A program made the translations under genes and the position numbers. The notes beneath the pieces are model-generated. The model saw nothing but the letters and a program-made list of their open reading frames with translations, searched no databases and was not told the origin of the DNA. Of a stretch of 64,000 bases of DNA, positions 282 to 45,475 are shown piece by piece. The DNA is taken from assembly GCA_050692175.1 (NCBI GenBank), contig JBOGTG010000148.1, forward strand, positions 322 to 64,321, given 5' to 3'. Position 1 is the first letter of the stretch, and each line of letters begins with the position of its first letter. This DNA is from Candidatus Limnocylindria bacterium. GTDB lineage: Bacteria; Chloroflexota; Limnocylindria; P2-11E.

Positions 282-689
282 TCAATTCGTGCGGCGGCCC
301 TGTTGCTGCTGCTGCATCTGGACGATCGCGACCGGTAGGCCGCCGATCGAGCTGCCGTCGACCTCGAGGTCGAACTTGTGCGTTCCGTAGCTGGTGAAGC
401 TCATGTTGTTCAGCTCGACGATCACATTCACGTCCTGGCCGGCAACGGCGTGGACGGAGATCTCCGGCGGGTTCGGCATCGCTTGCTGCCCGTCCGGCCG
501 TAGGAGACGGACCCGGACGGTGTGGGCCCCGACCTCGAGCCCCAGGATCGCCACGACGAACATCCGGGGATGCTGCGCCGGTAGCCCGCTCACGGAGATG
601 TTGCGGAAGATCCCCATGAGGCTGACCTTGCCGTCCTGCCCGACAAGGGCGTGGTCGCAGAGCGCCGCCAGACGGATCTCGGCCGTCAT
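282..689 (-). CDS. hypothetical 135-aa soluble protein with Gln-rich tail
   Basis: Track ORF. ATG 689..687 overlaps the leuS stop TGA 688..686 (ATGA), implying co-transcription and translational coupling with leuS. I cannot name a motif with confidence. Confidence 0.5.
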   Translation of the reverse strand: MTAEIRLAALCDHALVGQDGKVSLMGIFRNISVSGLPAQHPRMFVVAILGLEVGAHTVRVRLLRPDGQQAMPNPPEISVHAVAGQDVNVIVELNNMSFTSYGTHKFDLEVDGSSIGGLPVAIVQMQQQQQGRRTN

Positions 690-3124
690 GACCGTTGCTT
701 CGTGACGATGTTCACCAGGCGGTCAGCGACGAAGATCGTTCGCTCGATCTGTCGACCGTCGAGTGCCGCTTTCACCTTCGGACTGGCCATCGCGAGCTTC
801 TCGGCGGCCGGCTGGGCAATGCCGGCGGGCGCCGTCACACGATCGCGCACCTTGCCGTCGATCTGGACGACCAAGGTGACTTCGTTGGCCGCCGCGATCG
901 CCGGATCGAACGCCGGCCAACCCTGCCGGTGGATCGAGCCGCGACCGCCGCGGCGCTCCCAGAGCTCCTCGGTCATGTACGGCGCGAATGGCGCCAGAAG
1001 CAAGAGCAACGTCGCCACGCCTTCGTCCCGACTCGGACCGGTCGCGCGCTGGATGGCGTTCGACAGCTCCATCATCGCGGCGACCGCCGTATTGAACGAA
1101 TACGTTTGCAGGTCGTCGGTGACCTTCGCGATCGTGCGGTGAACGGCACGGTCGACATCGGGATCTCTCGGGCCGGGCGGTTGCGGCTCGGACTGAGCCA
1201 TCTCCCAGACACGTCGCAGGAACCGGTGCACCCCCTCGATCCCGGAGGCGTCCCAGTCCGCCCCATCTACCCACGGTCCCATGAACATCATGAAGAGACG
1301 GAGCGTGTCGGCGCCGTACTTCTCGACGTACGCGTCTGGCGTCTGCACGTTCCCGCGCGACTTGGACATCTTCCGCCCTTCGAACACGATCGTTCCCTGG
1401 TAGCGGAAACGCAGCGCGGGCTCGTCGAACCAGATCTCGCCAAGATCGCGCAACGCCTTCGCCATGAAGCGCATGTAAAGGAGGTGCAGGATCGCGTGCT
1501 CGACCCCGCCGGTGTACTGCTGGACCGGCAGCCACTTCTTTCCGAGCTCCTTGTTCATGAATCCCGCGTCGTACTTGGGGTCCACGTACCGGTACATGTA
1601 CCAGGAGGAATCGAGGAAGGTGTCCATCGTGTCGGTATCGCGGCGCGCCGGTCCGCCGCACTTCGGGCACGTCGTATTGACGAACGAAGCGACGTGCGTC
1701 AGCGGAGAGCCGCCGCGTCCGGTGAACTCGACGTCGCGTGGCAGGACGACGGGAAGCTGCTCGTAGGGCACCGGGACTGCGCCGCAGCGCTGGCAGTGCA
1801 CGATCGGGATCGGCGTGCCCCAGTAGCGCTGGCGCGAGATGAGCCAATCGCGCAGGCGATACGTGACGGAGGGGCCGCCGATGCCGCGCTTCTTCGCCTC
1901 GTCCGCGACCGCCTTCTTGCCTCCCTCGCTGCGCTTGCCGGTGAAGGGCCCGCTCCGGACCATGGTCCCCTCCCCCACGTACGGGGCGTCCAGGCGCTCG
2001 TGTTCCTTCGCATCCGGTGAGATCACCTCCCGGATCTCGAGGCCGTACTTCCTCGCGAACACGAAGTCGCGCTCGTCGTGGCCGGGGACAGCCATGATCG
2101 CGCCGGTCCCGTAGGTCGCGAGGACGTAGTCCGCCACCCAGATCGGGATGCGCTCGCCGGTGAAGACGTTGCGGGCGAAGGCGCCTGTGTCCACGCCGGT
2201 CTTCTCGCGCTCCGCGGAGGTCCGCTCGATCTCGGCCATGTTCCGCGCGCTCTCGACGTAGCGCTCGACCTCCGCGCGCGTGCCTGGCGCGGTGATCTTT
2301 GCGACAAGCCGGTGCTCGGGCGCAAGGACCATGAAGGTCGCGCCGTAGATCGTGTCCGGGCGTGTCGTGAAGAAGCGGATCTCGTCGCCGGCGGCGCCGT
2401 CGACCGGGAACGCGAGCTCCGCGCCCTCCGAGCGGCCGATCCAGTTCGTCTGAAGGACACGCACGCGCTCCGGCCAGTCCAAGCCCTCGAACCTCAAGAG
2501 CTCGTCTGCGTACTGCGTGATCTTGTAGAACCACTGCGTCATCTGCCGCTTCACGACGACCGTGTCGCACCGCTCGCATCGTCCATTAATGACCTGCTCG
2601 TTCGCCAGCACGGTCTCGTCGCGCGGGCACCAGTTGACCGGCGCGTCGGCACGGTAGGCGAGGCCCTTTTCGAAGAGCTTCAGGAACATCCACTGGTTCC
2701 AGCGGTAGTACTCCGGGTAGCAGGTGACGACCTCGCGGCGCCAATCGATCGCGGCGCCCATGCGATTGAACTGGTCGCGCATGTGCGCCATGTTCTTTTC
2801 GGTCCACACAGCCGGGTGGATCTTGCGGTCGATCGCCGCGTTCTCGGCGTTGATCCCGAAGGCGTCGAAGCCCATCGGGAACAGCACGTTGTGCCCGCGC
2901 ATCCGGAGGAAGCGGGCGGCAGCGTCCGGCGGCGCGAACGCGTACCAGTGACCCACGTGGATCTCGCCCGACGGGTACGGGAACATCGTCAGGAAGTAGA
3001 AGTTCGGTTTATCCGAGACGTCCGGCGTGTTGTGGAGGCCGGACGAGGCCCAGCGTTCGCGCCACTTCGCTTCGATGGCAGTAGGTGCGTAGCGTTCGAT
3101 CTTCTTCTCGACTTCGCTCGTCAT
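686..3124 (-). CDS. leuS: leucyl-tRNA synthetase
   Basis: Class I aaRS signatures are present (PYPSGEIHVGH = HIGH, KMSKSRGN = KMSKS) with an editing-domain-sized insertion. The start is set to ATG 3124..3122 (MTSEVEKKIERY), preceded by GGAAAGGAGG. The longer track ORF to 3316 reads through the tRNA gene. Confidence 0.95.
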   Translation of the reverse strand: MTSEVEKKIERYAPTAIEAKWRERWASSGLHNTPDVSDKPNFYFLTMFPYPSGEIHVGHWYAFAPPDAAARFLRMRGHNVLFPMGFDAFGINAENAAIDRKIHPAVWTEKNMAHMRDQFNRMGAAIDWRREVVTCYPEYYRWNQWMFLKLFEKGLAYRADAPVNWCPRDETVLANEQVINGRCERCDTVVVKRQMTQWFYKITQYADELLRFEGLDWPERVRVLQTNWIGRSEGAELAFPVDGAAGDEIRFFTTRPDTIYGATFMVLAPEHRLVAKITAPGTRAEVERYVESARNMAEIERTSAEREKTGVDTGAFARNVFTGERIPIWVADYVLATYGTGAIMAVPGHDERDFVFARKYGLEIREVISPDAKEHERLDAPYVGEGTMVRSGPFTGKRSEGGKKAVADEAKKRGIGGPSVTYRLRDWLISRQRYWGTPIPIVHCQRCGAVPVPYEQLPVVLPRDVEFTGRGGSPLTHVASFVNTTCPKCGGPARRDTDTMDTFLDSSWYMYRYVDPKYDAGFMNKELGKKWLPVQQYTGGVEHAILHLLYMRFMAKALRDLGEIWFDEPALRFRYQGTIVFEGRKMSKSRGNVQTPDAYVEKYGADTLRLFMMFMGPWVDGADWDASGIEGVHRFLRRVWEMAQSEPQPPGPRDPDVDRAVHRTIAKVTDDLQTYSFNTAVAAMMELSNAIQRATGPSRDEGVATLLLLLAPFAPYMTEELWERRGGRGSIHRQGWPAFDPAIAAANEVTLVVQIDGKVRDRVTAPAGIAQPAAEKLAMASPKVKAALDGRQIERTIFVADRLVNIVTKQRS

Positions 3125-3221
3125 GCCGACCTCCTTTCCGGAAATACAAAAGGCCTTTCGCCTGCGCTTGCGCGCTGGGGACGAAAGACCTCCGCGGTAC
3201 CACCCCAATTGAGAGCTCGAC

Positions 3222-3296
3222 TGGTGGAGCTGGCGGGATTCGAACCCGCGACCCCCACACTGCCAGTGTGATGCGCTCCCACTGCGCCACAGCCCC
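3222..3296 (-). tRNA. tRNA-Ala (anticodon GGC), CCA encoded
   Basis: The reverse complement is GGGGCTG TG GCGC AGTGGGA GCGC A TCACA CTGGCAG TGTGG GGGTC GCGGG TTCGAAT CCCGC CAGCTCC ACCA. It folds as a cloverleaf with a G3:U70 Ala identity pair, a GGC anticodon in a 7-nt loop, and a TTCGAAT T-loop. Confidence 0.93.
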
Positions 3297-3505
3297 GATG
3301 CTCTCCGCTCGAGCACGCTGATAACGGGCGTGACCCCGGCGAGAGCTAGCCGCCCAGCGGTTCGCTCCCGCGGCTCCCGGGTGAGTTCCGCGCTCCCGCA
3401 ACACCGGCTCGCACCTGCCGCCGGCTCTCTTGGTCGAGGGGATTCGCGTACTGGTCCCGTTCGATGCCGTTCGCTGAAAAGTATACGGACGGCGAGGTCC
3501 GAGGA

Positions 3506-22306: not shown

Positions 22307-22426
22307 GGACCCAGATCACGTCGCAGGCAGCCGCCGATGCGGCTACAAAACTGTAAGAGGTTCTTCCAGACCTTCGTCGGCCGGCCTGAGTGACTGTGGC
22401 TCCCTCCTGCCGGCCGCCTCGCTCTG

Positions 22427-22779
22427 TGGAGATGGGGGAGGGTCGAACTCCCCGTCCAAGGCCTGCGCGCGGATTGCGTCTACGAGCGTAGTCGGCGATT
22501 TTTGGTCTCGCGGAACGAGGCGCGCACCGACGCGCTTCTCGTTCTCGCCAGGTCGGTTTACTTGAGCCCGCCTACCGACCGATCGGCGGGCCGCAGCTCC
22601 GCTTATATCGCCCTTCCCGGCCCGCGGAGCGGAGACCGGGAGGACGTCTCACTGACTAGGCAGCGAGAGCGTAAGAAGTGTTGGCAGTTGTCTGCCTGCC
22701 GTTCGGATTAACGAGGGGGAACGGCGTTCCTCGGCTCGCGGCGGTCCGTCTGCCTGCCCTGTCGAAACCACGCATCCCC
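22427..22779 (-). ncRNA. ssrA: tmRNA (SsrA)
   Basis: The minus-strand 5' end is GGGGATGCGTGGTTTCGACAGGG. The tag reading frame GCC AAC ACT TCT TAC GCT CTC GCT GCC TAG encodes ANTSYALAA* (22685..22656). The 3' tRNA-like end is GGACGGGGAGTTCGACCCTCCCCCATCTCCA. The acceptor pairs GGGGATG/CATCTCC with G3:U. CCA is not encoded. Confidence 0.9.
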
Positions 22780-31916: not shown

Positions 31917-34013
31917 ATGCGACAGGCAAGTCTCGCAACGAAGATCGGCACGACCGCGGACCTGCGACCCGGCACGCCAGACGTGATCGTCGCGAGCGAA
32001 CCCACTCTCGGCGCGACGCTGCGGACGAAGGGGCGGTTCTACTTCCTGTGCGAGGTCGCACGCCAGCACGGGAACGGCGGAAGTGACATCGCGAAGGAGG
32101 TGGCCGACCTCGCTCGTCAGGAGTACTACTACGACCTCTCCGCCGGGATCGAGGTCTCGCTCCGCAAAGCGCTCCGGCAGGCGAATCGCCGCGCCGCGCA
32201 ACGCCTTCGCGATCAGCGCGGGCGGGTCGCTCTCCACTGCGCCTGCGCCGTCGTCGTGAACAACGAGCTCTACGCGGCCCGGATCGGCGCCGCGCAGATC
32301 TTCCTCGTGCGGCGGGCCCGGCTCTTCCTTCCGGGCGACGAACCCGGTGAGCTCGCGGACTTCGTGCATCGGACCACGACGCGCGTGGCCGAATCGCTCG
32401 GCGTTGTCGCGGATGTCCTCCCGGACGTGTGGCGTCAGAGCATCGAGCCCGGCGACACGCTCGTGCTGGCATCCGGCGCGCTCGTCGATGGGCTGGGGGC
32501 TGAGGCCCTGAAGAATGCGGCGATCACGCTTCACCCCCGCGCGGCTGCCGAGCACATCAATAATCGCGCGGTCGCCGACGGTGTCGTCGGCAGCGCGGCC
32601 GCGATCTTCATCGAGCTCTCCGCCGCGACCGCGGCAGCGGGCCGGGTCCTTCCGAAGCCTGAGCCCGTGGAGCCCACCGAGGTGCTGATCGCGGACGGCA
32701 TTCGCTCGCGCTTCGAGTCGATCTGGCGCCGGCGTCCCAGGGTCGCGCAGGCGATCGGGGCCGCGGCCGCGCCCGCGGCGAAGGCGATGGGAAAGACCGT
32801 GGCCATCGGCTTCGAGCTGATGCCGCGGCGAGCGCCTCCGCTCCCGCGCCGGCCGGACACGGCACGCGAGCGCTCGCGCCGCCAACGCCGCGCGGCCTCG
32901 TTGCTCGCGATCCTCCTGCTCCTCGTCGCCGGAGGCATCGGGCTTGTCGCTTATCGGGACTATCAAGCGAACCGCGTCACCGGGGACTACGCCTTAGCCA
33001 TCCTGAGCGTCGAAAGCGACATCTCGGCCGCGCAGCGATTCGCCGACCGCAAGCCGCCTGACAACGAGTCGGCGCGGAAGAAGGTCGACGATGCGCGGGT
33101 CGCCCTCGAGGAGGCCGCGCGGTCTCCAGCGGCCGACCCCGCCCGAATCGCGACGCTCCGCGAGCAGGTCCAGGCACTCGACGACCTGATCACAGGAGTC
33201 GTGGTCGATCTCGCACGCGTGACTGGTCCGGACGGCCGCCCGATCGCCCCGGGGGCGAAACCGACGGGTCTCACGGGCACCGCGAACGGGCTCTACGCGG
33301 CCGACCCGGTGGGCGGCCGCCTCTGGCGCATTTTCGGTGACCCCACGCAGGTCGCAGCCGTCCTCACCCGCGGAGCGCTCGGTGTCGGCGGGCCCCGGAT
33401 GGTCGCCAACCTGAACGAGGTCGTGTATTCGTTCGACGACCAGAAGCACCTGTGGCGGACGGAGGGCACAGGGGTCGCCGACGTAACGCCCGGGGACGCG
33501 TCGACCTGGAAGAGCGTCGACGCGTTCGCCGTCTTTGTTGCCAACCTGTACGTCCTGGACGCCACGAGCGGCCAGGTGTGGAAGCACGAGTCCTTCCCGG
33601 GAACCTCGTTCCTCCGCGCGCAGGGCTACCTTACCGAGCCGATCCCGACGGGTGTCGGCCGGTCGATCGCCGTCGATCAGGACATCTGGATCGTCACGAC
33701 GCAGGGCGACGTCCTCCGCTTCCGCCGCCTCACGACGTCCTTCACCGCCTCGCGTGTCGAGTTCGTCCCACGATGGAACGGAGCGCCGGTGAAGCCGACC
33801 GCGGTGCAGGCCATCGACATCCAGCGCGCCATCTACTTCCTCGATGCGCCGAACGGGATCGTCGTGCAGATGAACCGTGACGGCGGCGAGCTCGCGCGCT
33901 TCGCGCTGCCCTCCAATCTTCCAGGACCCAGCGCGTTCTACGTGTCCGAGGGGTCCCGGACGATCTTCACGATCCACGGATCGAAGGTGGTGGCGACGGA
34001 GCTCCGCGCGTGA
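31917..34013 (+). CDS. membrane protein: N-terminal PP2C-like (apparently inactive) domain, one TM, extracytoplasmic beta-propeller-like domain
   Basis: The first 240 aa or so follow a PP2C/SpoIIE fold pattern (NELYAARIGAAQIFLV, GDTLVLASGAL), but the Asp-rich metal motifs (DGMGG, GDSR) are replaced. A TM helix (LLAILLLLVAGGIGLVAY) follows, then repeated beta-strand-rich segments. Confidence 0.55.
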   Translation: MRQASLATKIGTTADLRPGTPDVIVASEPTLGATLRTKGRFYFLCEVARQHGNGGSDIAKEVADLARQEYYYDLSAGIEVSLRKALRQANRRAAQRLRDQRGRVALHCACAVVVNNELYAARIGAAQIFLVRRARLFLPGDEPGELADFVHRTTTRVAESLGVVADVLPDVWRQSIEPGDTLVLASGALVDGLGAEALKNAAITLHPRAAAEHINNRAVADGVVGSAAAIFIELSAATAAAGRVLPKPEPVEPTEVLIADGIRSRFESIWRRRPRVAQAIGAAAAPAAKAMGKTVAIGFELMPRRAPPLPRRPDTARERSRRQRRAASLLAILLLLVAGGIGLVAYRDYQANRVTGDYALAILSVESDISAAQRFADRKPPDNESARKKVDDARVALEEAARSPAADPARIATLREQVQALDDLITGVVVDLARVTGPDGRPIAPGAKPTGLTGTANGLYAADPVGGRLWRIFGDPTQVAAVLTRGALGVGGPRMVANLNEVVYSFDDQKHLWRTEGTGVADVTPGDASTWKSVDAFAVFVANLYVLDATSGQVWKHESFPGTSFLRAQGYLTEPIPTGVGRSIAVDQDIWIVTTQGDVLRFRRLTTSFTASRVEFVPRWNGAPVKPTAVQAIDIQRAIYFLDAPNGIVVQMNRDGGELARFALPSNLPGPSAFYVSEGSRTIFTIHGSKVVATELRA

Positions 34014-35264: not shown

Positions 35265-36563
35265 GTGATCGAACGCGCGATTTGGCCCCTGCACACGGCC
35301 GTCGGCCGCGACGGACACGTCCGCGTCGGGACGCACGACCTCGCGGGCCTGGCGGATCGCTACGGCACGCCCCTGTACGTGTACGACGCCGAGACGGTCC
35401 GCGCGAGCCTGCGTGAGTACGTCGACGCGTTCTTCCGATACCGGCCGGTGCGCGTCGCCTATTCGGTCAAGGCATGTGCCCTCATCGGCGTCGGCGCGGT
35501 CATCGCGCGCGAGGGGATCGACGCGAGCGTCGCGTCTTTGGGCGAGCTCCAGGCCGCTCGGCGGGCGGGCTTTCCCGCGTCGCGCATGGAGCTGCACGGC
35601 AACGCCAAGCCCGACGACGAGGTCGCCGAGGCACTCAGACTCCATGTCGGGCGCTTCGTCGTGGATGGGGCCCACGACGTCGAGCGGCTCGCTCGGCTCA
35701 CGCACGGCCGGCGCCGCCCGCAGGCGGTGTGGCTGCGCGTCGCGCCGGGGATCAACGTCGACACGCATCCACATCTGGTGACCGGAACGATCGACAGCAA
35801 GTTCGGCGCGCCGATCAGCACGGGCGAGGCACTCGCAGAGGCGCGGGAGATCGCGCGCGCGAAAGGTCTCGCCCTCTTCGGAATCCACGCGCACCTCGGC
35901 GCCCAGATCCGCGACGCGCGTCCCTACGGCGAGCTCGCGCGCGCACTCGTCGCGTTCGCGAACGAGGTGCGCGCCGCGACAGGCGCCCCGATCACCGAGC
36001 TCGGCATGGGCGGTGGGGTCGCCGTGAAGCTCCGCACGACCGAGGAGGCGCCCGAGTTGGACGACTACGCGCGTGCCGTCACGGAGCCGGTCCGAAAGGA
36101 TCGCGCCCTGCGCGGCGCGACGATCTACGTCGAGCCCGGGCGCGGACTCGTGGGCCGCGCGGCGGTCGCGCTGTATCGCGTGGTGGGGACCAAACGCGTC
36201 CCGGAGGTACGGACGTTCGTCGCGGTCGACGGAGGGATGGGCGATAACATCCGCCCGGCGCTCTACGGCGCCGAGTACAGCGCGGTCCTGGCAGCACGGG
36301 CGAACGAGCAGGGGACCGAGGAAGTCACCGTAGCCGGGCGGTACTGCGAGTCGGGGGACGTACTGATCCGATCGGTGCGCTTGCCGACCGCGCACCCAGG
36401 CGACGTTCTCGCCATCCCAGCGGCGGGCGCGTACAGCGTCGCTATGTCGTCGAACTACAACGAGACCCCGCGGCCGGCCGTGGTCCTACTCGATAGCGGC
36501 CGCGCCAGGATCATCCGCGAGCGCGAGAGCCTCGACGACATCTGGCGGCTCGAGCGGCGCTAA
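35265..36563 (+). CDS. lysA: diaminopimelate decarboxylase
   Basis: Fold-III PLP decarboxylase pattern (YSVKAC, GGGVAV-type Gly loop, EPGRGLVG, GRYCESGD, AGAYSVAMSSNYN). Confidence 0.9.
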   Translation: MIERAIWPLHTAVGRDGHVRVGTHDLAGLADRYGTPLYVYDAETVRASLREYVDAFFRYRPVRVAYSVKACALIGVGAVIAREGIDASVASLGELQAARRAGFPASRMELHGNAKPDDEVAEALRLHVGRFVVDGAHDVERLARLTHGRRRPQAVWLRVAPGINVDTHPHLVTGTIDSKFGAPISTGEALAEAREIARAKGLALFGIHAHLGAQIRDARPYGELARALVAFANEVRAATGAPITELGMGGGVAVKLRTTEEAPELDDYARAVTEPVRKDRALRGATIYVEPGRGLVGRAAVALYRVVGTKRVPEVRTFVAVDGGMGDNIRPALYGAEYSAVLAARANEQGTEEVTVAGRYCESGDVLIRSVRLPTAHPGDVLAIPAAGAYSVAMSSNYNETPRPAVVLLDSGRARIIRERESLDDIWRLERR

Positions 36564-37282
36564 CTTCCCGGGCGGAGCCAGAGGCGGGTGCGCAACCGAA
36601 TGAGATCGCGGATCGCGCGGATGATCACGCGCGGCGATGCCCCCTTGGGCTCGTGGGCGGTCCGGGGAAAGTGGCGCACCCCGACCTGGCGCACGCGGAT
36701 GCCCGCGCGGCGGAGCGTGATCAGAAGCTCCGGTGAGAAGAAGGCCCCGTTCGACCGCACGCGCTCCAGCGGCACGCGCGCGAAGACGTCGCGCCGAAAC
36801 AGCTTGAACGCGCAGTCGACGTCGCGCCAGCCGCCGCCGAACAGGAGGCGGATCAGGCGGTTGTACACCCACGCCACGAAGAGGCGCCGGGGCGGATCGG
36901 CGCGCTTGCGCCGGAAGCCGACGACCGCGTCGGCGCCGTCGCTCACAGCAATGAGGAGCGCGAGGTCCTCGAGTGCGAATTGGCGATCGCCGTCGGTGAA
37001 GAAGATCCAGGGCTTCGTGGCGGATTGCAGGCCCGAGCGGACGGCGCCGCCGTAGCCGCGGCGGGTCCCGTGGTGGATCACCCGCACGCGCGGATCTTTC
37101 CTCGAGAGCTCGTCGGCGATCGAGCCGGTGCGGTCGCTGCTCCCGTCGTCCACGACGGTGATCTCGACGTCGTCGGCGAAACGCGGCAGCACGGCGAGCG
37201 CCTCTTCCACGATCGGCGCGACGTTGTCCTCTTCGTTCAGTGCGGGGAAGAAGAAGGAGAGGCCGTCGAGACGAGCGGGCAC
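36560..37282 (-). CDS. GT2 polyprenol-phosphate glycosyltransferase (Dpm1/Ppm1/GtrB-like)
   Basis: LSFFFPALNEEDNV ... VVDDGSSDRT ... FFTDGDRQF (DxD-type), 240 aa with no TM tail. Divergent from the GT-C genes across a 30-nt gap. Confidence 0.85.
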   Translation of the reverse strand: MPARLDGLSFFFPALNEEDNVAPIVEEALAVLPRFADDVEITVVDDGSSDRTGSIADELSRKDPRVRVIHHGTRRGYGGAVRSGLQSATKPWIFFTDGDRQFALEDLALLIAVSDGADAVVGFRRKRADPPRRLFVAWVYNRLIRLLFGGGWRDVDCAFKLFRRDVFARVPLERVRSNGAFFSPELLITLRRAGIRVRQVGVRHFPRTAHEPKGASPRVIIRAIRDLIRLRTRLWLRPGS

Positions 37283-37312: not shown

Positions 37313-38503
37313 ATGACCGTGTCCGACCGAGCAGCCGCGATCTGGATCGGTGTGATCGCGGCCGCGATCTACGCGGCCGCCGGCATCGGACTCTCGACCG
37401 ACTACGACTACTACGGGAGACTGGCGGACGCGTTCCTCCACGGCCGCTGGTGGCTCGACGAGGCCCCCCCGTGGCTCAACGAGCTCCTGCAGTGCGGCGA
37501 CGGGCGTTACTGCGTCGCCTATCCGCCGCTGCCGGCGATTCTGTCGGTTCCGCTCGTGCCGTTCTTCTCGACGGCGGTGGCGCAGGTCGTCGTTTCGCGC
37601 ATAGCGGGCGGCGCGTCGGCCGGCGTCCTCTACTACGCGCTGCGCGCATACGGGGCGCCCCGCACGTACGCGCTGGCGGGCGCACTTCTCTCGGCGTTCG
37701 GAACGACGCTCCTCTTCTCGAGCGTCGACGGCCGCGCGTGGTATGCGGCGCACTCGGTCTCGATGCTCTTTCTCGCCGGAGCCTTCGCGGTGGCGGCGCG
37801 CGGCGGCAGCGCCGTCGCGATCGGCGCGCTCATCGGCCTCGCCGCCCTCGCCCGGCTGCCCGTCGCGCTCGCCGCACCTGCCCTCGCGCTCCTCTGCGCG
37901 CGGCGCGCGGAGATCACTTACACGCGGTCTTTGGGCGGCGTGATCGCAGGCGGCGCGCCGTTCGCCATCGTCTACTTCGGATACAACATGTTGCGCTGGG
38001 GAGTGCCTCTGGACGAGGGATACACGCGGCTCACGCAGGGCGACGTGTTCTTCAACCACGGGCTCTTCTCGCCCATCTATCTGCCCCGCCAGCTCTACGC
38101 GATCTTCGTTCAGCCGCCCGACTTCATCTCGGGGACGCCGTTCTTCCTGCGTCCCCGCTATATCGGCATGAGCCTCTTGCTCACCACGCCTGCGTTCCTC
38201 TGGATCTTCGCCGCTCTGCGCGAGGTCCGTCGCGACGTCGTCGTGGCCGCGACCGGGGTGGCGGCGCTCCTGGCGCTCCTGCCGGATCTCTTCCACGGGA
38301 CCGTGGGCTTCCAGCAGTTTGGCTACCGCTTCAGCATCGACGCGCAGCCGTTTCTCGTCGCGCTCGCGCTCTCGGGTGACGGGCTTTTCCGCGGGGTCTG
38401 GCGCCGCTGGCCGACGATTCTCTTCGCGGTCGCGACCTTCCTTGCGCTCGCCGTCAACATCTACGCAACGATCGCGATCACGCGCTTCGATTACTGGCAA
38501 TGA
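37313..38503 (+). CDS. GT-C-fold integral membrane glycosyltransferase (ArnT/PMT-like)
   Basis: 396 aa from ATG 37313, about 10 to 11 TM segments, and an acidic/aromatic first loop (STDYDYYGRLADAFLHGRWWLDE). The upstream part of the track ORF is antisense to the GT2 gene. Confidence 0.55.
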   Translation: MTVSDRAAAIWIGVIAAAIYAAAGIGLSTDYDYYGRLADAFLHGRWWLDEAPPWLNELLQCGDGRYCVAYPPLPAILSVPLVPFFSTAVAQVVVSRIAGGASAGVLYYALRAYGAPRTYALAGALLSAFGTTLLFSSVDGRAWYAAHSVSMLFLAGAFAVAARGGSAVAIGALIGLAALARLPVALAAPALALLCARRAEITYTRSLGGVIAGGAPFAIVYFGYNMLRWGVPLDEGYTRLTQGDVFFNHGLFSPIYLPRQLYAIFVQPPDFISGTPFFLRPRYIGMSLLLTTPAFLWIFAALREVRRDVVVAATGVAALLALLPDLFHGTVGFQQFGYRFSIDAQPFLVALALSGDGLFRGVWRRWPTILFAVATFLALAVNIYATIAITRFDYWQ

Positions 38504-41500
38504 ACGACGGTCTCGGTCGGAGCGAGCGCCGCGCGCGGCTCGTCGTCGCTGGCGTCGTCGCGCTCGGCGTGATCGTCCGGCTCCTCGCCGTGCGCGCTCA
38601 GGGCTTTCCGACCGACGTCGGCACATTCCAGGCGTGGGCCGAGCGCCTCGCCCGAATCGGCCCGGGCCTCTTCTACGAGCCGGGGTACTTCAGCGATTAC
38701 CCCCCGGCGTTCCTGTACGTGTTGTGGCTTCTCGGCGCCCTCTTCGACGGCGAGTTCCTTCGACTCGCGGTCAAGGCGATCAGCATCCCCGCCGACATCG
38801 CCATCGCGCTTCTTGCCGCAGGGTTGCTGTGGCGCGCGGCTGGGCGCGCGGCCGCGGTTGCCGCCGCCGCGATCTGGTCGCTGCAGCCGGGGGTCATCTT
38901 CGCCGGGCCGTATTGGGGGCAGGTCGATGCGGTCGGGACACTCCCGCTCTTCGGGTCGGTTCTCGCGGCCGGATCGCGGCGCTGGTGGCTCGCCGGTGCG
39001 CTCGCGGCGCTGGCCGCGCTCGTCAAGCCGCAGTTCGGTGTCGGCCTCTTCGTGATCGTCGTTGCGGCGGTGATCGAGTTCGTGCGAGGCGCGCGCCCGC
39101 GTCCGGTCCTCGAGACGCTCGGCGCCGCGGTCGCGACGGCTTACGTCTTGTGCGTTCCGTTCTGGGGACCCGATCCGCTCCGGATCGCGCGCGAGCTCAT
39201 CGGGCTCGTCCAGAGCGCCGCCGGCACCTACAAGTACACCTCGCTGTACGCGTTCAACGGCTGGTCGATCTTCTTCGATTTCTGGAAGCCCGACGACCAG
39301 CTCGTCGGAGCCGGCGCCATCCTGATCGGGGCGGGGTTCCTCGCGGCCGTGGCGCCGCTCTGGTGGCGTCGCGACACCGCTGCCCTGCTCGCCTGCGCCA
39401 CTTTCGCGGCGCTCGCCTTCTACTTCCTGCCGACGCGCGCGCACGAGCGCTATCTCTTCCCCGTGTTCGCGCTCGCGCTTCCGTTCGCCGCCGCGCGGAC
39501 GCGGATCTTCGCCCCGTACCTGACGCTCGCGGTGGCCTTCTTCGTGACGCTCTACTACGCGTTCACGCGCTACCAGCAGCACGTGGATCTGCGCGTACCG
39601 GAAATCCTCGAGGCGACGCTCTTCAGCCGGAGCGGCCAGATCGCCATCGCGGCTGTGATGATCTCCGCGGCCGCGTACCTCTGGTGGCGTCTCGTCCGAG
39701 GCGACGCGCGATTCGAGACCGACACCCCGTGGAGCCTCCCCGCCGTGGCCGTGCCACGTCGGGGCTGGTGGACCCTGCCAGCTGGGCTCGGCCCCGGTCG
39801 CGTGCCCAACCGTCGCGACGTGGCCGTCGCAGCGCTCGTCGCGCTCGCGGTCCTCGGGACGAGAGGCTACCGCCTCGACTGGCCCCGTGACATGTACTTC
39901 GACGAGGTCTACCACGCCCGCACCGCGTTCGAGCTTCTCGCGCAGCGCGATCCGTACGAGTGGACGCACCCGCATCTCGCGAAAGAGATCATGGCGCTCG
40001 GGATCCTCGCCTTCGGCGACGATCGCGTGGTGGGGCACGAGCCGGCTCCCCCGCAGGGGAAACCGACGGCCTTCGTCGTTGCGAACGACGGCACCCGAGT
40101 CTCGGTCGCCGAAGGTTTCCAGGTCGTCGTGCAACCGCGAGGCGGGGCAGCGGCCAGTCGCGCGCTCGGCGTCGATGCGAAGGCGCTCGCGATCCAGGGT
40201 GATCACATCATCGCGATGACGGATCAAGCGCTCGTCGTAATTCCGTTCGCCGAACAGCCGAGCAACACCCAGCTCCAGCAAGTCCGACTGCCGTTCAGTG
40301 GCGCGCGGTCGCTGTCGCTTGCGGGCGACCGCGTGATCGTCGGCGGTCCGAGCTCGCTCGCGATCTACGCGACGCTCGACGCGACCCCCACCGTCATTCC
40401 GATCCCGACGATCGCCGTCACCGCGAAGACGGACGGGAGCGAGGTCTACGTCCTCGACGGGCGGGGGATCGTGCACGTCGTCTCGACGGAGACCGCGCAG
40501 GAGACGCGTGCACTCACCGGGGGCCGGCCCGGTGCGGCCATCGCGTACGCGCTCGGCTCGAATCGCGTCTTCGTTGCGCGCGCCGACGCTCCGATCCTCG
40601 ACGTGTTCGAGCTCGAGTCGGGATCACACGATGCAGTCCCGCTCGCGAACGCGCGCACCGGTACGTTCTCGTCGGGCGCGACAGCGCTCGCGGTCGTGCC
40701 GCGTACGGACTTCCTCTACGCGCTCGATGAGGGCCGCGTCGTCGTGGTCGAGACGCACGGGACGGCGCCGTTCGCGTCGATCCCGGTGGGCGACGGAACG
40801 TTTCTTGGCGTCGACGGAGAGGGCGACAAGCTCGTCGTCGCCGGAGCGAGCGGGGCCGATCTCATCGAGACCGGCCGGCACGCGATCGCGTGGCGCCTGC
40901 CCGGGGTCCTCTTCGCCGCGCTCCTCGCCTTCCTTCTCGTCGTCCTCGCGCGACGCCTCTTCGCGTCGGCCGTCCTGCCCGCACTCGTCGGTCTCGCGGT
41001 GCTCGTCGACGGTTCGATGTTCGCGCAGGCGCGGATCGGCATGAACGACATCTACGTGGCGACGCTCATCGTCGCCGGCTGGTACTTCGTCGTGGCCGCG
41101 CACCAGGGGGCAGGGGCCCCCGGCCGCGCAGCGGACCGCGAAGCGGGGAGGCGATGGGCCCTCGTCGACCTTCTCATCGCGGGCGTGTGCTTCGGGCTCG
41201 CGCTCGCGTCGAAATGGGTCGCGGCGTACGCGCTCGCCGGCGTGTTCGTGGCCACGATCGCAGTTACCGCTCGCTCGTACGAGCGTGGCCACCCCGGCGA
41301 GGGCGGACCGTTGGACCTCTTTGGCGGCCTTCGCAATGAGCCGAGCCCCGCGCCGGATCCGGCGGATCGATTGCCGCTCGCCACGGCCGCGCCCGGTTCT
41401 CTGGCCGCAGCGGTGGCGTTGATCGTGGCCACGCTTCTCGTGATCTCGCGCAATGCGCTTCGGCTTCTCGTCGCCTTCGCGCTCATCCCCGCTGCGATCT

Positions 41501-42264
41501 ACCTCGGGAGCTACCTGCCGTGGTTCGGCGGTTCGACGATCCCATACGGTTGGAGCATCGGCGAGCTCACACAACAGATGTACTGGTACCACTCAAGCCT
41601 CACCGCGCCGCACCCGGCGGGGTCCCCCTGGTGGAGCTGGCCGCTCGTGCTGAAGCCCGTCTACTGGTACTTCGGCGCGTCAACCGGCGGCGACAACGCC
41701 TACATCTACGACGCCGGGAACGTCGTGCTCTACTGGGCGGGCCTTGTCGCGTTCGCGTGGTGCGCGATCGCAGCGGTGCGCGCGCGATCGGTGCCGCTCG
41801 CCTTCGTGGTGTTCGCGGGACTCGTGCAGTACGTCGCGTGGATCCCGATCGGACGGGTGCTTTTCTTCTATCACTTCTTCACCGCGCTGCCGTTCTACCT
41901 GCTCGCCCTCGCGGCGGGGCTCGCGTTCCTCTGGGAGACCGGTCGGGCCCGCCTGGTCGTCGGGTATCTCGCCGCCGCCGCGGCGGCGTTCGTTTACTTC
42001 TATCCGTTCATCTCGGCACAGCCCTTCCCGGGGGCGCAGGCCGGCATGTTCTTCATCCTTCCGACCTGGACCTACGAGTGCCAGTTCTATCCGACGTTCG
42101 TCTGCAATCCGACCATCGGCTCGTCCTTCTCGGTGGTCGCGCTCTTCGGCCGTCTCGCGCTCGTGCTGGGGGTCGCCGCGGGTGTTGCCATCCTCGTCAT
42201 CTGGAGCAGCACCCCGGGATTCTCCCGGCTGCTGGCTACGGTGCGATCGGGTACGCGCCGCTAG
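38500..42264 (+). CDS. 1254-aa fusion: Gpi18/DUF2029-like GT-C module + PMT-type (GT39) protein O-mannosyltransferase module with inserted beta-propeller-like domain
   Basis: The first 450 aa or so are polytopic with FPTDVGTFQAWAERL..YFSDYPPAFLY and HERYLFP. From about aa 464 the PMT hallmarks appear: DMYFDEVYHARTAFELL and THPHLAKEIMALG. About 285 aa of beta-repeat sequence follow (40025..40870), then a PMT TM core and a C-terminal YWYHSSLTAPHPAGSPWWSWP segment. ATGA overlap with the preceding GT-C gene. Confidence 0.75.
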   Translation: MNDGLGRSERRARLVVAGVVALGVIVRLLAVRAQGFPTDVGTFQAWAERLARIGPGLFYEPGYFSDYPPAFLYVLWLLGALFDGEFLRLAVKAISIPADIAIALLAAGLLWRAAGRAAAVAAAAIWSLQPGVIFAGPYWGQVDAVGTLPLFGSVLAAGSRRWWLAGALAALAALVKPQFGVGLFVIVVAAVIEFVRGARPRPVLETLGAAVATAYVLCVPFWGPDPLRIARELIGLVQSAAGTYKYTSLYAFNGWSIFFDFWKPDDQLVGAGAILIGAGFLAAVAPLWWRRDTAALLACATFAALAFYFLPTRAHERYLFPVFALALPFAAARTRIFAPYLTLAVAFFVTLYYAFTRYQQHVDLRVPEILEATLFSRSGQIAIAAVMISAAAYLWWRLVRGDARFETDTPWSLPAVAVPRRGWWTLPAGLGPGRVPNRRDVAVAALVALAVLGTRGYRLDWPRDMYFDEVYHARTAFELLAQRDPYEWTHPHLAKEIMALGILAFGDDRVVGHEPAPPQGKPTAFVVANDGTRVSVAEGFQVVVQPRGGAAASRALGVDAKALAIQGDHIIAMTDQALVVIPFAEQPSNTQLQQVRLPFSGARSLSLAGDRVIVGGPSSLAIYATLDATPTVIPIPTIAVTAKTDGSEVYVLDGRGIVHVVSTETAQETRALTGGRPGAAIAYALGSNRVFVARADAPILDVFELESGSHDAVPLANARTGTFSSGATALAVVPRTDFLYALDEGRVVVVETHGTAPFASIPVGDGTFLGVDGEGDKLVVAGASGADLIETGRHAIAWRLPGVLFAALLAFLLVVLARRLFASAVLPALVGLAVLVDGSMFAQARIGMNDIYVATLIVAGWYFVVAAHQGAGAPGRAADREAGRRWALVDLLIAGVCFGLALASKWVAAYALAGVFVATIAVTARSYERGHPGEGGPLDLFGGLRNEPSPAPDPADRLPLATAAPGSLAAAVALIVATLLVISRNALRLLVAFALIPAAIYLGSYLPWFGGSTIPYGWSIGELTQQMYWYHSSLTAPHPAGSPWWSWPLVLKPVYWYFGASTGGDNAYIYDAGNVVLYWAGLVAFAWCAIAAVRARSVPLAFVVFAGLVQYVAWIPIGRVLFFYHFFTALPFYLLALAAGLAFLWETGRARLVVGYLAAAAAAFVYFYPFISAQPFPGAQAGMFFILPTWTYECQFYPTFVCNPTIGSSFSVVALFGRLALVLGVAAGVAILVIWSSTPGFSRLLATVRSGTRR

Positions 42265-43030
42265 CGAAGATCAGAGTCGCGATCGCGCCCACGACGACGA
42301 TCGCGACGAGAATGGCGAGTACGAGGTTCACGAAGTTGCGCCGCACATCGGCGAGTCCGAACGACCGGCGCGCCGCGTAGAGGACGACCGTGATGTTGTC
42401 CTCGCCGCCTCGCTCCTTAGCGAGATCGACCAGGGCCGTTGCCGCCCGGTCGAGATCCGCGCTCCGCATGGTCGACGCGATCTCGCCGTCCGGCACATGT
42501 CGCGTGAGGCCGTCGGAGCAGAGCAGGAGCCGGTCTCCAGGGCGGAGGGCCTCGACAAACACGTCGGGCTGAACGCCGCGCGGATCGCCGACGAACCTCG
42601 TGATCGAGCTCTGGAACTCTCCGGCATGATCGGCCGTCACGAGCCGGATATCGCCGTCGCGGAGGAGATAGGCGCGGCTATCGCCAAGGTTGCCGATGAC
42701 GGCCGAGGTGCCGACGATCGCCGCCGCCACCAGCGTGGAAGCGGCACCCTGCTGGCCGCTCTCGCCCGCCGCCCCGAGCACCGCGTCGTTCGCGCCGCGG
42801 ATCGCGGCCGCCAGTACCTCCGCCGGAGGTCGGTCGGGGCTCGCGCTGAAGAAGCTCGCCGAGAGCGCATCGATCGCGGCCGCGCTTGCCATCTCGCCGC
42901 CGGCCTCGCCGCCGACGCCGTCGGCCACCGCGAGGAGCGTCGTCTTACCCCCTTCGCGGACAAGGTAGCGATCTTCGTTGTTCTCGCGCACGCGCCCGGT
43001 GTCGGTGCGTGCCGCTGTTCGCGCTGCCAG
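42236..43030 (-). CDS. PP2C-family Ser/Thr phosphatase with C-terminal TM anchor (PstP-like)
   Basis: RTDTGRVRENNEDR, VADGVGGEAGGE, LGDSRAYL and LLLCSDGL motifs, plus a C-terminal TM helix. The start is proposed at CTG 43030, 8 nt after SD GAAGGGGGA and just past the pknB stop. The only ATG alternative, 43141, overlaps pknB by 109 nt. Confidence 0.8.
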   Translation of the reverse strand: MAARTAARTDTGRVRENNEDRYLVREGGKTTLLAVADGVGGEAGGEMASAAAIDALSASFFSASPDRPPAEVLAAAIRGANDAVLGAAGESGQQGAASTLVAAAIVGTSAVIGNLGDSRAYLLRDGDIRLVTADHAGEFQSSITRFVGDPRGVQPDVFVEALRPGDRLLLCSDGLTRHVPDGEIASTMRSADLDRAATALVDLAKERGGEDNITVVLYAARRSFGLADVRRNFVNLVLAILVAIVVVGAIATLIFASGAYPIAP

Positions 43031-43032
43031 CC

Positions 43033-44286
43033 CTAATCCCCCTTCTTCGTGCAGTCCTTTCCCGCGACGTAAAACAGGGTCGCCGTCGCTCCGCGCGCGA
43101 TCGTCGTTCCGGCTACGGGGTCCTGCCGGACAACGGCACATGCGCCGCCCGGGCCCTGCCCGACATCCCATGCGACACGGGCGAACCCGGCGGCCTGCAA
43201 CACCCCGACCGCGTCACCGAGCTTTCTCCCAACGACGTTCGGCGTCTGCGCTCCGGCCGCTGTTGGCGCGGGCGTTGGGGCACCGGTCGGCTGCGTGCCG
43301 CGCGGGAAGGACGAGAAAAAGAGGAAGAGCGCGAACAGGATCGCGAGCATGGCGACGATCGCGACGCTGCTGTCGAAGCGCGGCAGAGCCCACCGGATGC
43401 GGGGGGCGCGCAGGCCGCCGACCACGAGCGACGAGGTGGGGTCAGTGTCGCGGTCCGCCACGTCGGAGAACGCTCGAGCGAAGGCGCCCGCGCTCGCGTG
43501 GCGGTGGTCCGGCAGGGTCGCCAGCGCGCGCCGGACGATCGCGTCGAGCCGGTCGTCGATTCCGACGCGCGCGAGCCGGAGCGACGGCGGCGGCCCGACG
43601 AGCCGCTCGCGGACGAGTTCCTCGCTGGTCGCACCATCGAACGCGGGTCTGCCGGTGAGCAGCTCGTATGCGACAAGGCCGAGGCCGTACACGTCGGTGC
43701 GCGCAGTGACCGGTCCGCCTTCGACGCGCTCGGGTGCGATGTACCGCGCCGTGCCGAGAAGCTCCTGCTCGTCACGATCGCGCGCGGCGCGTGCGATCCC
43801 AAAGTCCGTGAGCTTCGCGATGCCCTCGCGGTCCACGATCACGTTCGCCGGCTTCACGTCGCAGTGCACGACCCCGGCGGCGTGAGCCGCGTCGAGCGCG
43901 CCGGCGACCTGCCTGATCAGGCGAGCCACCTCATGCGCGGGCAACGGGCCGCGCTCGGCGACGATCTCGCGCAGGGTCTTTCCGTGCACGTGCTCCATGA
44001 CCATGAACGCATCGGCACCGTCGCGACCCTCGTCGAACACGGTGACGACGTTCGGGTGAACGACCGCCGCTGCGCGGCGTGCCTCATCCGCGAAACGCGC
44101 GCGGAACGCGTCGTCCGCGTCGGGGCCAAGGAGCTTGATTGCGACGTCCCGGTCGAGCTTCTCGTCGCGCGCGCGCCATACCTCGCCGGCGCCGCCCTCG
44201 TCGATCCGCTCGATGAGGCGGTACCGCTTGGCAAGAAGGCGCGCCGCTGTGGGCGCGCGCAGCTCTCCTGTCTTCTCGCTGGCCAT
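43033..44286 (-). CDS. Ser/Thr protein kinase with one extracellular PASTA domain (PknB-like)
   Basis: GGAGEVWRARD...VAIK, HCDVKPANV, a DFG motif, a TM helix, and a C-terminal PASTA-like segment (PNVVGRKLGDAVGVLQAAGF...). Starts at ATG 44286 (MASEKTG). Confidence 0.88.
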   Translation of the reverse strand: MASEKTGELRAPTAARLLAKRYRLIERIDEGGAGEVWRARDEKLDRDVAIKLLGPDADDAFRARFADEARRAAAVVHPNVVTVFDEGRDGADAFMVMEHVHGKTLREIVAERGPLPAHEVARLIRQVAGALDAAHAAGVVHCDVKPANVIVDREGIAKLTDFGIARAARDRDEQELLGTARYIAPERVEGGPVTARTDVYGLGLVAYELLTGRPAFDGATSEELVRERLVGPPPSLRLARVGIDDRLDAIVRRALATLPDHRHASAGAFARAFSDVADRDTDPTSSLVVGGLRAPRIRWALPRFDSSVAIVAMLAILFALFLFFSSFPRGTQPTGAPTPAPTAAGAQTPNVVGRKLGDAVGVLQAAGFARVAWDVGQGPGGACAVVRQDPVAGTTIARGATATLFYVAGKDCTKKGD

Positions 44287-44320
44287 GTCCCCGTTTGTCC
44301 GCAACTTATGTGCTAACCCG

Positions 44321-45475
44321 TCAGGCGAGCTCAACGAGGGCCCCGAGGGCCGCCTCATAGGTCCGGTCACTTCCGAGAATCGAGAGCTCCTCACCGATGA
44401 GCTCGACGATGGCCGGCGAGGGGAGCGGCATCGTGCGCTCCCAGCGTCGCTCGCCGTTCAGGAGAACGGTGGCGGTCTGATGGGCCGGATCGGGTTGGCG
44501 TTTCACGACGAACTCCGCCTGCTCTCTCCCGCCGGTGGCCTGCAGACGGAATCCCGAGATGTCGCCCTCCTCGAGGCCGCGTTCGAAGCGCGGCCGCACG
44601 CGGACCATGATCCGCGCACCATCCGGGCGCGCGATCGCGAACAAGAGTCCGCCGGCCTCTGAAGGCGCGAGCGTCTCGAGCGGTCGCCAGCCGAGACGCG
44701 AGGCCAGCCATCCCACGAAGAGCAACGCCTGCGAAGGATGGATGTCACGACCATCCATGTCCACAGCAAAGCCGACCCGCATTCCGGTGATACCGTCCAG
44801 AAAGAGGCGCCACGCGGGAACGTCGAAGAACGATGTCGCGATCTCGCGCCACGGTGTCAGTCGCGTCCAATTCAGGTCGGTGAGCCCGAACCGTCCGCGT
44901 GCCGACTCGGAGATGCGCGCGATGATCGGCAGCGTGCTCTCGGGCCTCGCGAAGTCGGCGGAGTCGACGATGAGTCGGTCGGTCAGACGCAACAGGTCCG
45001 CGAACGAACGCGAGCCGAGCGGTGGCGTTCCGGTCCACCAGAGAAAGACCGGAAGGTCAGGCACGAGGAGTGGGATCACCGCCGATGCGAGCCGATCGTC
45101 GACGTCGCCTCTCGCGCGAACGAGGATCTGCTCGTAGCAGACCTGTCGTGCGCCGTCCGGGATCGGAAGCCGGCAATGCATCTCGATGCGCCGTTCTGTG
45201 CCCTCGCGCGGACCACGGTCGGCGAGCACGACGATGGCGCGCGACGGATGGCGAAGCGCGAGGTCAGAGATGCTTCGCGCCGCGCGGCGCGCGTGCTCCT
45301 CACGCTCGGCGTACACGATCAGGTTGAGCACCGAAGCGCGCGCGATCGGGCGGACCTGCTCGCGCGCATGCGCAGTCTCGACGCGGCGGAGCCGGGTGAG
45401 CTCGCGCTCGAGGGCGGCCACGCCTTCGGCGCGGACGCCCCAGAACGTTGTATCGACGACTATGCCTTCCGCCAC
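44321..45475 (-). CDS. opcA: glucose-6-phosphate dehydrogenase assembly protein OpcA
   Basis: ASVLNLIVYAE ... HPSRAIVV ... LVPDLPVFLWWTG, immediately downstream of zwf. The proposed GTG start 45475 overlaps the zwf end. Confidence 0.8.
   Translation of the reverse strand: MAEGIVVDTTFWGVRAEGVAALERELTRLRRVETAHAREQVRPIARASVLNLIVYAEREEHARRAARSISDLALRHPSRAIVVLADRGPREGTERRIEMHCRLPIPDGARQVCYEQILVRARGDVDDRLASAVIPLLVPDLPVFLWWTGTPPLGSRSFADLLRLTDRLIVDSADFARPESTLPIIARISESARGRFGLTDLNWTRLTPWREIATSFFDVPAWRLFLDGITGMRVGFAVDMDGRDIHPSQALLFVGWLASRLGWRPLETLAPSEAGGLLFAIARPDGARIMVRVRPRFERGLEEGDISGFRLQATGGREQAEFVVKRQPDPAHQTATVLLNGERRWERTMPLPSPAIVELIGEELSILGSDRTYEAALGALVELA

Follow-up and report, generated by a model that had tools for sequence, protein, structure and literature searches.

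A 64,000-nucleotide stretch of a Candidatus Limnocylindria contig (JBOGTG010000148.1 of assembly GCA_050692175.1), referred to here as the window, encodes at 38500..42264 on the forward strand a protein of 1254 amino acids (aa), the window protein. It joins in one chain a GT87-like module, a protein O-mannosyltransferase (PMT) module of family GT39, and a beta-propeller inserted into loop 1 of the PMT module; both membrane modules belong to the GT-C glycosyltransferase superfamily. We consider it rather likely that the window protein is a single-chain protein O-mannosyltransferase holoenzyme, in which the GT39 module would initiate glycosylation, the propeller would select the acceptor and the GT87-like module would probably carry out extension.

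Continuity of the reading frame

The open reading frame (ORF) begins with ATG and runs through 1254 codons to its stop, with zero internal stops. Its codon-position GC content of 0.70/0.52/0.87 (GC3 0.87) is like that of the other real genes of the window, which has 67% GC. The identical 1254-aa protein is called as one gene, with the same neighbours, in NCBI assembly GCA_975253595.1, which comes from an independent pipeline. A sequence-only reading of this DNA had proposed a fusion of two GT-C modules, and the single frame is confirmed by that gene call. The motifs it quoted are all found in the protein: YFSDYPPAFLY (aa 63-73), HERYLFP (315-321), DMYFDEVYH (464-472), THPHLAKEIMALG (489-501), RHAIAWRLPGV (from 793) and YWYH..PWWSWP (1028-1048).

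We scanned one genome per GTDB species and obtained 414 contigs with relatives; the locus counts given here and below are over the best 77 of these. They come from Chloroflexota / Candidatus Limnocylindria metagenome-assembled genomes (MAGs), except four that are labelled otherwise. In most of the 77 the ORF is a single continuous match across nearly the entire query, and in the remaining loci contig ends truncate it or the best segment alone was reported. The four exceptions (L002, L003, L017 and L058) are labelled Bathyarchaeia, Udaeobacter, Saccharimonadales and Acidiferrales; their loci are 57-76% identical and have full Limnocylindria synteny, and these contigs are probably misbinned, from a soil MAG collection. 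A protein search returned more than 1,262 relatives in databases, of which the best 120 are mostly about 1200 aa long, with 57-87% identity and 95-100% query coverage.

Since the same ORF recurs in independent assemblies, in the NCBI record and in relatives, we exclude a frameshift or misassembly and reject the idea that two or three separate genes have been joined artificially, to which we attach a negligible probability. No stop or frameshift splits the ORF, which is continuous over 77 independently assembled, species-level loci and complete wherever the contig permits; more than 1,200 proteins have a length of about 1200 aa, and the codon-position GC content is uniform along the frame. In addition, the modules are joined in a topologically consistent manner, and related fusions are found in cultured Paenibacillus genomes.

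Three folded parts in one chain

The C-terminal part of the protein is a PMT-type module, as had been read from its motifs: Pfam PMT (PF02366) matches aa 793-921 with 40.5-40.7 bits (gathering cut-off 22.7), PMT_4TMC (PF16192) matches aa 1022-1190 with 45.9-49.6 bits (cut-off 32.4), and sequence and profile searches of the PDB match fungal Pmt4 (9i5k), yeast Pmt4 (9e61) and yeast Pmt1 (6p25). The module was identified correctly in the sequence-only reading, but its start was set too late, at aa 464, as the first transmembrane (TM) helix sits near aa 441. This helix and two loop-1 helices (aa 441-506, 39820..40017, on the forward strand as are all parts of the protein) hold D468-E469 (nt 39901-39906) and H490-P-H-L-A-K495. 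The core, TM2 to TM11 (aa 793-1204, 40876..42111), was delimited with Pfam and the alignment to ScPmt1; in it, loop 2 carries R845-x4-D850 (D850 at nt 41047-41049), PMT_4TMC starts at aa 1022, and loop 5 carries R1119-x2-F1122 (nt 41854-41865). The YWYH..PWWSWP segment, taken earlier as the end of the module, opens PMT_4TMC and is followed by five TM helices. The canonical core is followed by one further TM helix and a basic tail on the cytoplasmic side (aa 1205-1254, 42112..42264 including the stop), with a hydropathy peak at aa 1205-1241 and poor conservation; a counterpart, helix 1158-1182, is present in the homolog model described below.

The D468-E469 pair (MYFDEVYH) aligns with FDEVH, the DE motif of fungal and yeast Pmt4, and with the D77 region of ScPmt1. 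R845-IGMN-D850 pairs with ScPmt1 R184..D189, in a loop-2 stretch that is not significant on its own (i-Evalue 95), and R1119/F1122 pair with ScPmt1 R649/F652, in a loop-5 stretch that is significant (4.6e-6). The key PMT residues, including the DE motif, are invariant among 58 homologs. Mutagenesis of MtPMT found D74, D176, R441 and Y444 to be essential, and the yeast equivalents are named in the same work (PMC12331936); in the alignments, all four of these experimentally validated catalytic positions are retained in the window protein.

Lysine and arginine are abundant in the N-terminus, in the linker between the membrane modules (aa 403-440), in loops 818-825, 868-886, 1093-1098 and 1146-1151, and in the C-terminal tail, and they are scarce in the propeller and in loops 4 to 6. 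This distribution fits a predicted topology with a cytoplasmic linker and with the propeller and the two catalytic loops on the outside. With the catalytic loops outside and the linker inside, the N-module must have an even number of TM helices; the approximately 12 helices that the five cytoplasmic loops of PimE imply (PMC12041525) would fit this need.

Relative to the common 1202-aa homologs, two lineage-specific inserts were observed in the PMT core. One (aa 869-885, nt 41104-41154) is absent from P0001, P0044 and P0065, and a similar one occurs at the same place in distant homologs such as P0081 and P0085. The other (about aa 942-985, nt 41323-41454) is common to P0001, P0044 and P0065, and places about 25 hydrophobic residues within the predicted cytoplasmic TM6-TM7 loop, where a re-entrant or surface helix is more likely than a full TM helix because the latter would flip the downstream topology.

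The Pfam PMT match is interrupted by a seven-bladed beta-propeller (aa 507-792, 40018..40875), assigned from the structural model, Foldseek and profiles and predicted to be extracytoplasmic; the profile positions pick up again at about 80 at aa 793. The full-length model is an AlphaFold2 model of the 1200-aa homolog P0023, which is 80% identical to the window protein (mean predicted local distance difference test score (pLDDT) 77.8, predicted template modelling score (pTM) 0.60). In this model the beta domain (aa 508-787, corresponding to window aa 510-789) consists of 28 strands arranged as seven blades of four, with a pLDDT of about 90. The beta-repeat insert described earlier at 40025..40870 (aa 509-790) agrees with this domain and with a propeller fold. 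In a Foldseek search of the PDB with the full-length P0023 model all 50 listed hits were propellers, mostly seven-bladed WD40 proteins such as G-beta (E about 1e-8, target template modelling score about 0.7), and no GT-C match was among them; as the GT-C parts were left without a match, the N-module was modelled separately (see below). The family profile also matches the designed propeller Tako8 (1.7e-8), 1L0Q, the YVTN propeller of a Methanosarcina S-layer protein (1.8e-5), and, weakly, YncE.

The isolated beta region matched no Pfam family at threshold (Beta_propel, E 0.12), and an RND_mfp hit in the Pfam/NCBIfam scans of that region (0.005) was judged spurious. When only the beta region was used as query in a word-indexed homolog search, all matches were fragments of the same family, and no free-standing propeller relative was found at that sensitivity. 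The propeller is flanked by loop-1 helix 2 (HPHLAKEIMALGILAF) and by TM2, which are helices 491-503 and 790-817 of the model. This placement puts it in extracytoplasmic loop 1, about 40 residues past the DE motif and in the same loop, so it should cover the PMT active site; its position above that site is what the insertion point would predict. The sequence-only reading was right about the propeller, and the substrate-binding role it attached to this domain stands unrefuted, a comparable role having been proposed in a preprint for the mycobacterial propeller subunit discussed below.

The N-terminal module (aa 1-402, 38500..39705) resembles PimE, ALG6 and glycosylphosphatidylinositol (GPI) mannosyltransferases by its structural model, Foldseek and profile, and lies just below the Pfam GT87 cut-off. 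Its AlphaFold2 model (window aa 1-445) has a pLDDT of 78.8 and a pTM of 0.81. Foldseek ranks 1-30 are all GT-C enzymes except for PIG-U, a related subunit of the GPI transamidase: ALG6 (8e-5, template modelling score 0.59) and PimE 9dm5 (2.5e-4, score 0.53-0.59, 19% identity) come at the top, followed by GPI mannosyltransferase I (4e-4) and ALG3, and then by STT3, AglB, PglB, ArnT and Emb. A profile built from the N-module only matches GPI mannosyltransferase 1 in the PDB at E 2.7e-4. Many homologs of the window protein have a precomputed PF09594 hit, and JGI names them 'Gpi18-like mannosyltransferase'. The earlier proposal of a complete N-terminal GT-C-like module is thus borne out, and the fold and the profile match are those of a glycosyltransferase. 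An Arg-rich linker follows (aa 403-440, 39706..39819), which is irregular, has low pLDDT and 6 K+R in 38 aa, is predicted to be cytoplasmic, and shows 43-50% identity across homologs.

Conservation in the N-module was assessed by aligning 59 N-module-bearing 50%-identity cluster representatives, taken from the HMMER scan described below, to the N-module profile; these are about 30-62% identical to the window protein over the PMT module, most of them below 45%. Residues D39, W46, Y59, D66-Y67-P-P69, D99, P130, W139-G-Q141-x-D143, K176-P-Q178, N253 and H315-E-R-Y318 are kept in 51-58 of the 59, and K92 in 45. The first juxtamembrane helix (JM1; helix 37-53 in the AlphaFold2 model) has D39 (nt 38614-38616) close to its N-terminal end. 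PimE has its catalytic base, D58, at the JM1 tip; its active site is lined by D160 and Q163, and the phosphate is bound by K195 and H322 (PMC12041525). The PimE residues D58, D160/Q163 and K195 map to D39, Q141/D143 and K176 with an offset of about -19, which is exact for D39 and K176. It is reasonably likely that the N-module retains a putative active site, and the conserved Asp, Lys and His at PimE-like positions suggest that it is probably an active enzyme.

Identity to the window protein, given for all homologs aligned and for the distant group, is highest in the PMT loop-1 helices (89% and 88%), followed by the PMT core (74% and 69%), the N-module (67% and 61%), the propeller (56% and 49%), the linker (50% and 43%) and the C-terminal tail (38% and 20%). 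Purifying selection acts on all three folded parts, of which the propeller evolves fastest.

Gene neighbourhood and related systems

Directly upstream of the fusion gene is a gene for a 396-aa polytopic membrane protein, M396 (37313..38503, forward strand), which NCBI also calls as a 396-aa gene. Its stop overlaps the start codon of the fusion gene (ATGA), and the two genes are translationally coupled through this overlap. M396 is directly upstream in 66 of the 77 loci, and most of the others are cut off upstream of the fusion gene. It has an invariant D32 just past TM1 and, in its first loop, a pair of invariant cysteines (C61/C67), and every annotation of its homologs reads 'hypothetical'. 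M396 itself has no Pfam hit, 4 of 20 orthologs match GT87 weakly (best E 6.7e-5), and no significant similarity to PDB sequences was found. M396 probably adds a third GT-C-like (GT87-like) protein to this operon. Profile-profile comparison of M396 with the N-module gave no significant similarity (E 0.15-0.32), so we discarded the idea of recent paralogy between the two.

Divergent from M396 is a gene for a 240-aa GT2 protein that resembles polyprenyl-phosphate sugar synthases (36560..37282, reverse strand; Pfam Glycos_transf_2, 2e-28), present in 55 of the 77 loci. Its best NCBIfam matches are all polyprenyl-phosphate-sugar synthases (ArnC, dolichyl-P-hexose transferase, PgfS, AglJ and PpgS), all below the cut-offs, and this protein probably supplies the lipid-linked sugar donor. 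The GT2 and M396 neighbours persist down to 44% identity of the fusion protein.

On the other side, two genes are convergent to the fusion gene: a PP2C phosphatase gene (42236-43171, reverse strand), which overlaps its 3' end by 29 nt, and, further downstream, a gene for a PASTA-domain Ser/Thr kinase (43033-44394, reverse strand). This linkage is kept in 61-68 of the 77 loci and may reflect only the general synteny of the class. Elsewhere in the window, a 698-aa protein (31917-34013, forward strand) has no Pfam hit; its N-terminal region is weakly PP2C-like, and besides a single TM helix it has C-terminal beta-rich repeats that resemble another extracytoplasmic propeller. It lies in conserved synteny and is followed by a rhomboid protease gene. 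The window also contains a tmRNA gene (22424-22779, reverse strand; tag peptide ANTSYALAA) and a tRNA-Ala(GGC) gene (3222-3296, reverse strand), which is overrun by a longest-ORF call on that strand (686..3316).

Related architectures were surveyed with a HMMER scan of aa 440-1254 against 1.84 billion 50%-identity cluster representatives, which gave 3,257 hits at E <= 1e-3. We classified the best-scoring 150 of these with module hidden Markov models (HMMs) from the family of the window protein, leaving out proteins below 700 aa as probable fragments. The Limnocylindria form (architecture A), about 1200 aa long, combines the N-module and the PMT module with an insert of about 290 aa; it also includes proteins with 31-37% identity, one of which (P0208) is from an Actinomycetota MAG, and the inserts of P0208, P0177 and P0191 align in register with the propeller (hhalign probabilities of 80%, 92% and 56%). 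Architecture B consists of metagenomic giants of 1500-2092 aa (P0166, P0171, P0178, P0185, P0194 and others), with the N-module and three inserts, namely a loop-1 insert of about 400 aa and two others within the PMT core, which give weak propeller hints only (PQQ_2, EML). Comparison of distant loop-1 inserts (320-460 aa) with the propeller by hhalign was not significant. In proteins of about 960-1330 aa (architecture C), about 230-250 intervening residues separate the N-module from a PMT module without the loop-1 insert, and the clusters looked up among them, P0236 and P0281, include cultured Paenibacillus species. Finally, architecture D has the PMT module with a loop-1 insert but no N-module; in its example P0159 (756 aa) the insert is clearly the same propeller (7e-21).

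The closest known counterpart of this combination is found in mycobacteria, where tagged M. smegmatis Pmt pulls down three partners (preprint, July 2026, bioRxiv 10.64898/2026.07.15.738315). The complex described there contains the GT39 enzyme Pmt (Rv1002c/ML0192c), a GT87-like protein (Rv0051/ML2687c), a propeller protein (Rv3212/ML0810c) and a DivIVA-like protein (Rv1209/ML1065). In the AlphaFold3 model of that preprint an eight-bladed periplasmic propeller is placed straight above the DE motif, with a proposed MIR-like role. According to the same work, the GT87-like partner has no catalytic residues but matters for Pmt function. Like this complex, the window protein contains a GT39 part with the DE motif, a GT87-like GT-C part and a predicted extracytoplasmic propeller, but here they form a single polypeptide whose PMT loop 1 accommodates the propeller. 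Its propeller has seven blades instead of eight, and its GT87-like part keeps the putative catalytic residues that ML2687c is reported to lack.

The same preprint mentions Paenibacillus GT39 enzymes with a translational fusion to a GT87 enzyme (V9WAU2), which was read as a sign that Pmts work as dimers. The Paenibacillus fusions (V9WAU2 there, and in our survey P0236, P0281 and P0301 with 1028-1060 aa) share with the window protein an N-terminal GT87-like and a C-terminal PMT module; the N-module HMM of the Limnocylindria family matches them at E 1e-40 to 1e-46, and the equivalent of D39 is kept. In contrast to the window protein they have no PMT loop-1 insert, with about 230-250 residues between the modules instead, and their identity to it over the PMT module is only about 35%.

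In Actinomycetota, Ppm1 (GT2) makes polyprenyl-phosphate-mannose, Pmt puts the first mannose on Ser/Thr, and PimE (GT87) extends from the same donor (PMC12757957). The locus described here follows the same GT2/GT39/GT87 logic as this pathway, in which Ppm1 and PimE are separate proteins. Actinobacterial Pmts (M. tuberculosis Rv1002c, S. coelicolor, C. glutamicum) share with the window protein the catalytic D(E), the loop-2 Asp and the loop-5 R-x2-Y/F, whereas they are single-module enzymes, roughly 500 aa long, that lack a propeller and have a WW-like motif in loop 4. The N-module has the fold of PimE (9dm5) and of ALG6 / GPI-MT-I, with an Asp near the start of juxtamembrane helix 1 and with Lys and His at positions that, judged from spacing, would match the PimE phosphate ligands; unlike PimE, with which it shares 19% identity, it falls just under the Pfam GT87 cut-off and is fused to a PMT module.

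Eukaryotic PMT1/PMT2/PMT4 and POMT1/2 likewise have the GT39 fold, the DE motif, obligately paired GT-C bodies and a soluble luminal domain that caps the active site. There the soluble domain, a MIR domain of beta-trefoil fold, lies between TM7 and TM8 (loop 4 here, 'loop 5' in the older seven-TM model), in a different loop from the propeller, as the sequence-only reading had stated, and the partner is a second GT39 protein instead of a GT87-like one. The claim in that reading of a new architecture was overstated: tandem GT-C fusions in themselves had already been reported and are not unique, the Paenibacillus GT87-GT39 fusions being known and found here in isolates and in many 50%-identity clusters, and the trio of GT39, GT87-like and propeller proteins has been reported as a co-purifying mycobacterial complex. 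Our literature searches on Limnocylindria glycosyltransferases and on GT-C enzymes in tandem or fused form did not turn up the present family. As far as the literature was searched, two features are undescribed: the propeller in PMT loop 1, giving a single-chain triple fusion, and an N-module that keeps its putative catalytic residues.

Proposed mechanism and alternatives

In the mechanism that we favour, a polyprenyl-phosphate hexose, most likely mannose, would be made at the cytoplasmic face of the membrane, plausibly by the divergent GT2 protein, and would then be flipped. The GT39 module would move the sugar to Ser/Thr hydroxyls of exported proteins at the outer face of the cytoplasmic membrane, by means of loop-1 D468-E469, loop-2 D850 and loop-5 R1119/F1122. 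The loop-1 propeller, lying over the PMT active site, would select or hold the acceptor, a role proposed for eukaryotic MIR domains and for mycobacterial Rv3212/ML0810c. The N-terminal GT87-like module would substitute for Rv0051/ML2687c, the partner of mycobacterial Pmt, and, being probably active, would elongate the O-linked mannose as PimE does in mycobacteria; M396 may be a further GT-C-like subunit. A tentative extension of this mechanism, to which we give somewhat less than even chances, is a truly bifunctional GT-C enzyme, in which GT39 initiation and GT87-like elongation would share one donor pool and one acceptor-holding propeller, with no release between the steps; the degenerate mycobacterial Rv0051 subunit would then be what is left, in decayed form, of this ancestral arrangement of two enzymes.

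Several observations weigh against the proposed holoenzyme. Pfam GT87 (PF09594, aa 67-305, E 3.5e-5) scores 24.1 bits on the isolated N-module and 21.2 bits in the full-length protein, against a cut-off of 25, and the correspondence of PimE D58, K195 and H322 to D39, K176 and H315 was drawn from spacing and helix position. The full-length model was made for a homolog and has a pTM of 0.60. The NCBIfam Pmt equivalog NF058602 gives 30.4 bits against a cut-off of 800, which places the window protein outside the orthologs of the characterised actinobacterial Pmt. No flippase was identified, and no DivIVA-family match was present among the immediate neighbours, which is as far as DivIVA was sought. 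Some Paenibacillus-type relatives have weak CBM_4_9 and F5/8 type C hits, and such carbohydrate-binding modules in related fusions could point to glycan acceptors. Moreover, the carriers of the gene are uncultured MAGs throughout.

The machinery may be the same and the N-module a non-catalytic, built-in dimer mate or a scaffold that recruits acceptors, with elongation, if any, by another enzyme such as M396; we regard this as possible, though unlikely. Yeast Pmt2 in the Pmt1-Pmt2 model and mycobacterial Rv0051/ML2687c would be its analogues, the latter being important despite the missing catalytic residues, and the Paenibacillus fusions were interpreted as Pmt dimers in the same preprint (bioRxiv 10.64898/2026.07.15.738315). 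M396, translationally coupled and also weakly GT87-like, could then be the elongating enzyme. A scaffold, however, would not need the near-universal D39, D66, K92, D99, Q141, D143, K176-P-Q and H315-E-R-Y of the 59 representatives, a degree of conservation that exceeds such a function and that parallels the catalytic base and the phosphate ligands of PimE.

In another reading the acceptor would not be a protein: both GT-C modules would build or decorate an envelope glycolipid or polysaccharide (lipomannan-like or S-layer-associated), and the propeller would bind the glycan chain. The likeness would then be to Emb, AftD and Mpt enzymes with carbohydrate-binding domains, and the low equivalog score, the CBM_4_9 and F5/8 type C hits, the NCBI family name, which is merely 'phospholipid carrier-dependent glycosyltransferase', and the glycolipid nature of the best-known PimE substrate all agree with it. 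Nevertheless, the four residues needed for protein O-mannosylation by MtPMT are kept, as is the PMT-specific region from loop 4 to PMT_4TMC, Pfam PMT outscores PMT_2 on the window protein, and the sole experimentally studied trio of GT39, GT87-like and propeller proteins acts on proteins; we regard a glycan or lipid acceptor as quite improbable.

Gene fusions are a classic sign that proteins act together. The fusion of GT39, GT87-like and propeller parts in a phylum distant from Actinomycetota therefore gives independent support to the proposal of a bacterial Pmt complex, and it suggests that a GT-C pair together with a capping domain underlies protein O-mannosylation generally, in bacteria and eukaryotes alike. 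With stoichiometry and assembly built in, a single-chain holoenzyme would be an attractive target for cryo-electron microscopy and biochemistry, and the putative catalytic residues that it retains permit a direct test of whether the GT87-like partner began as an active elongase. Limnocylindria are an abundant uncultured class of soil and freshwater, and the family described here predicts O-glycosylation of their surface proteins.

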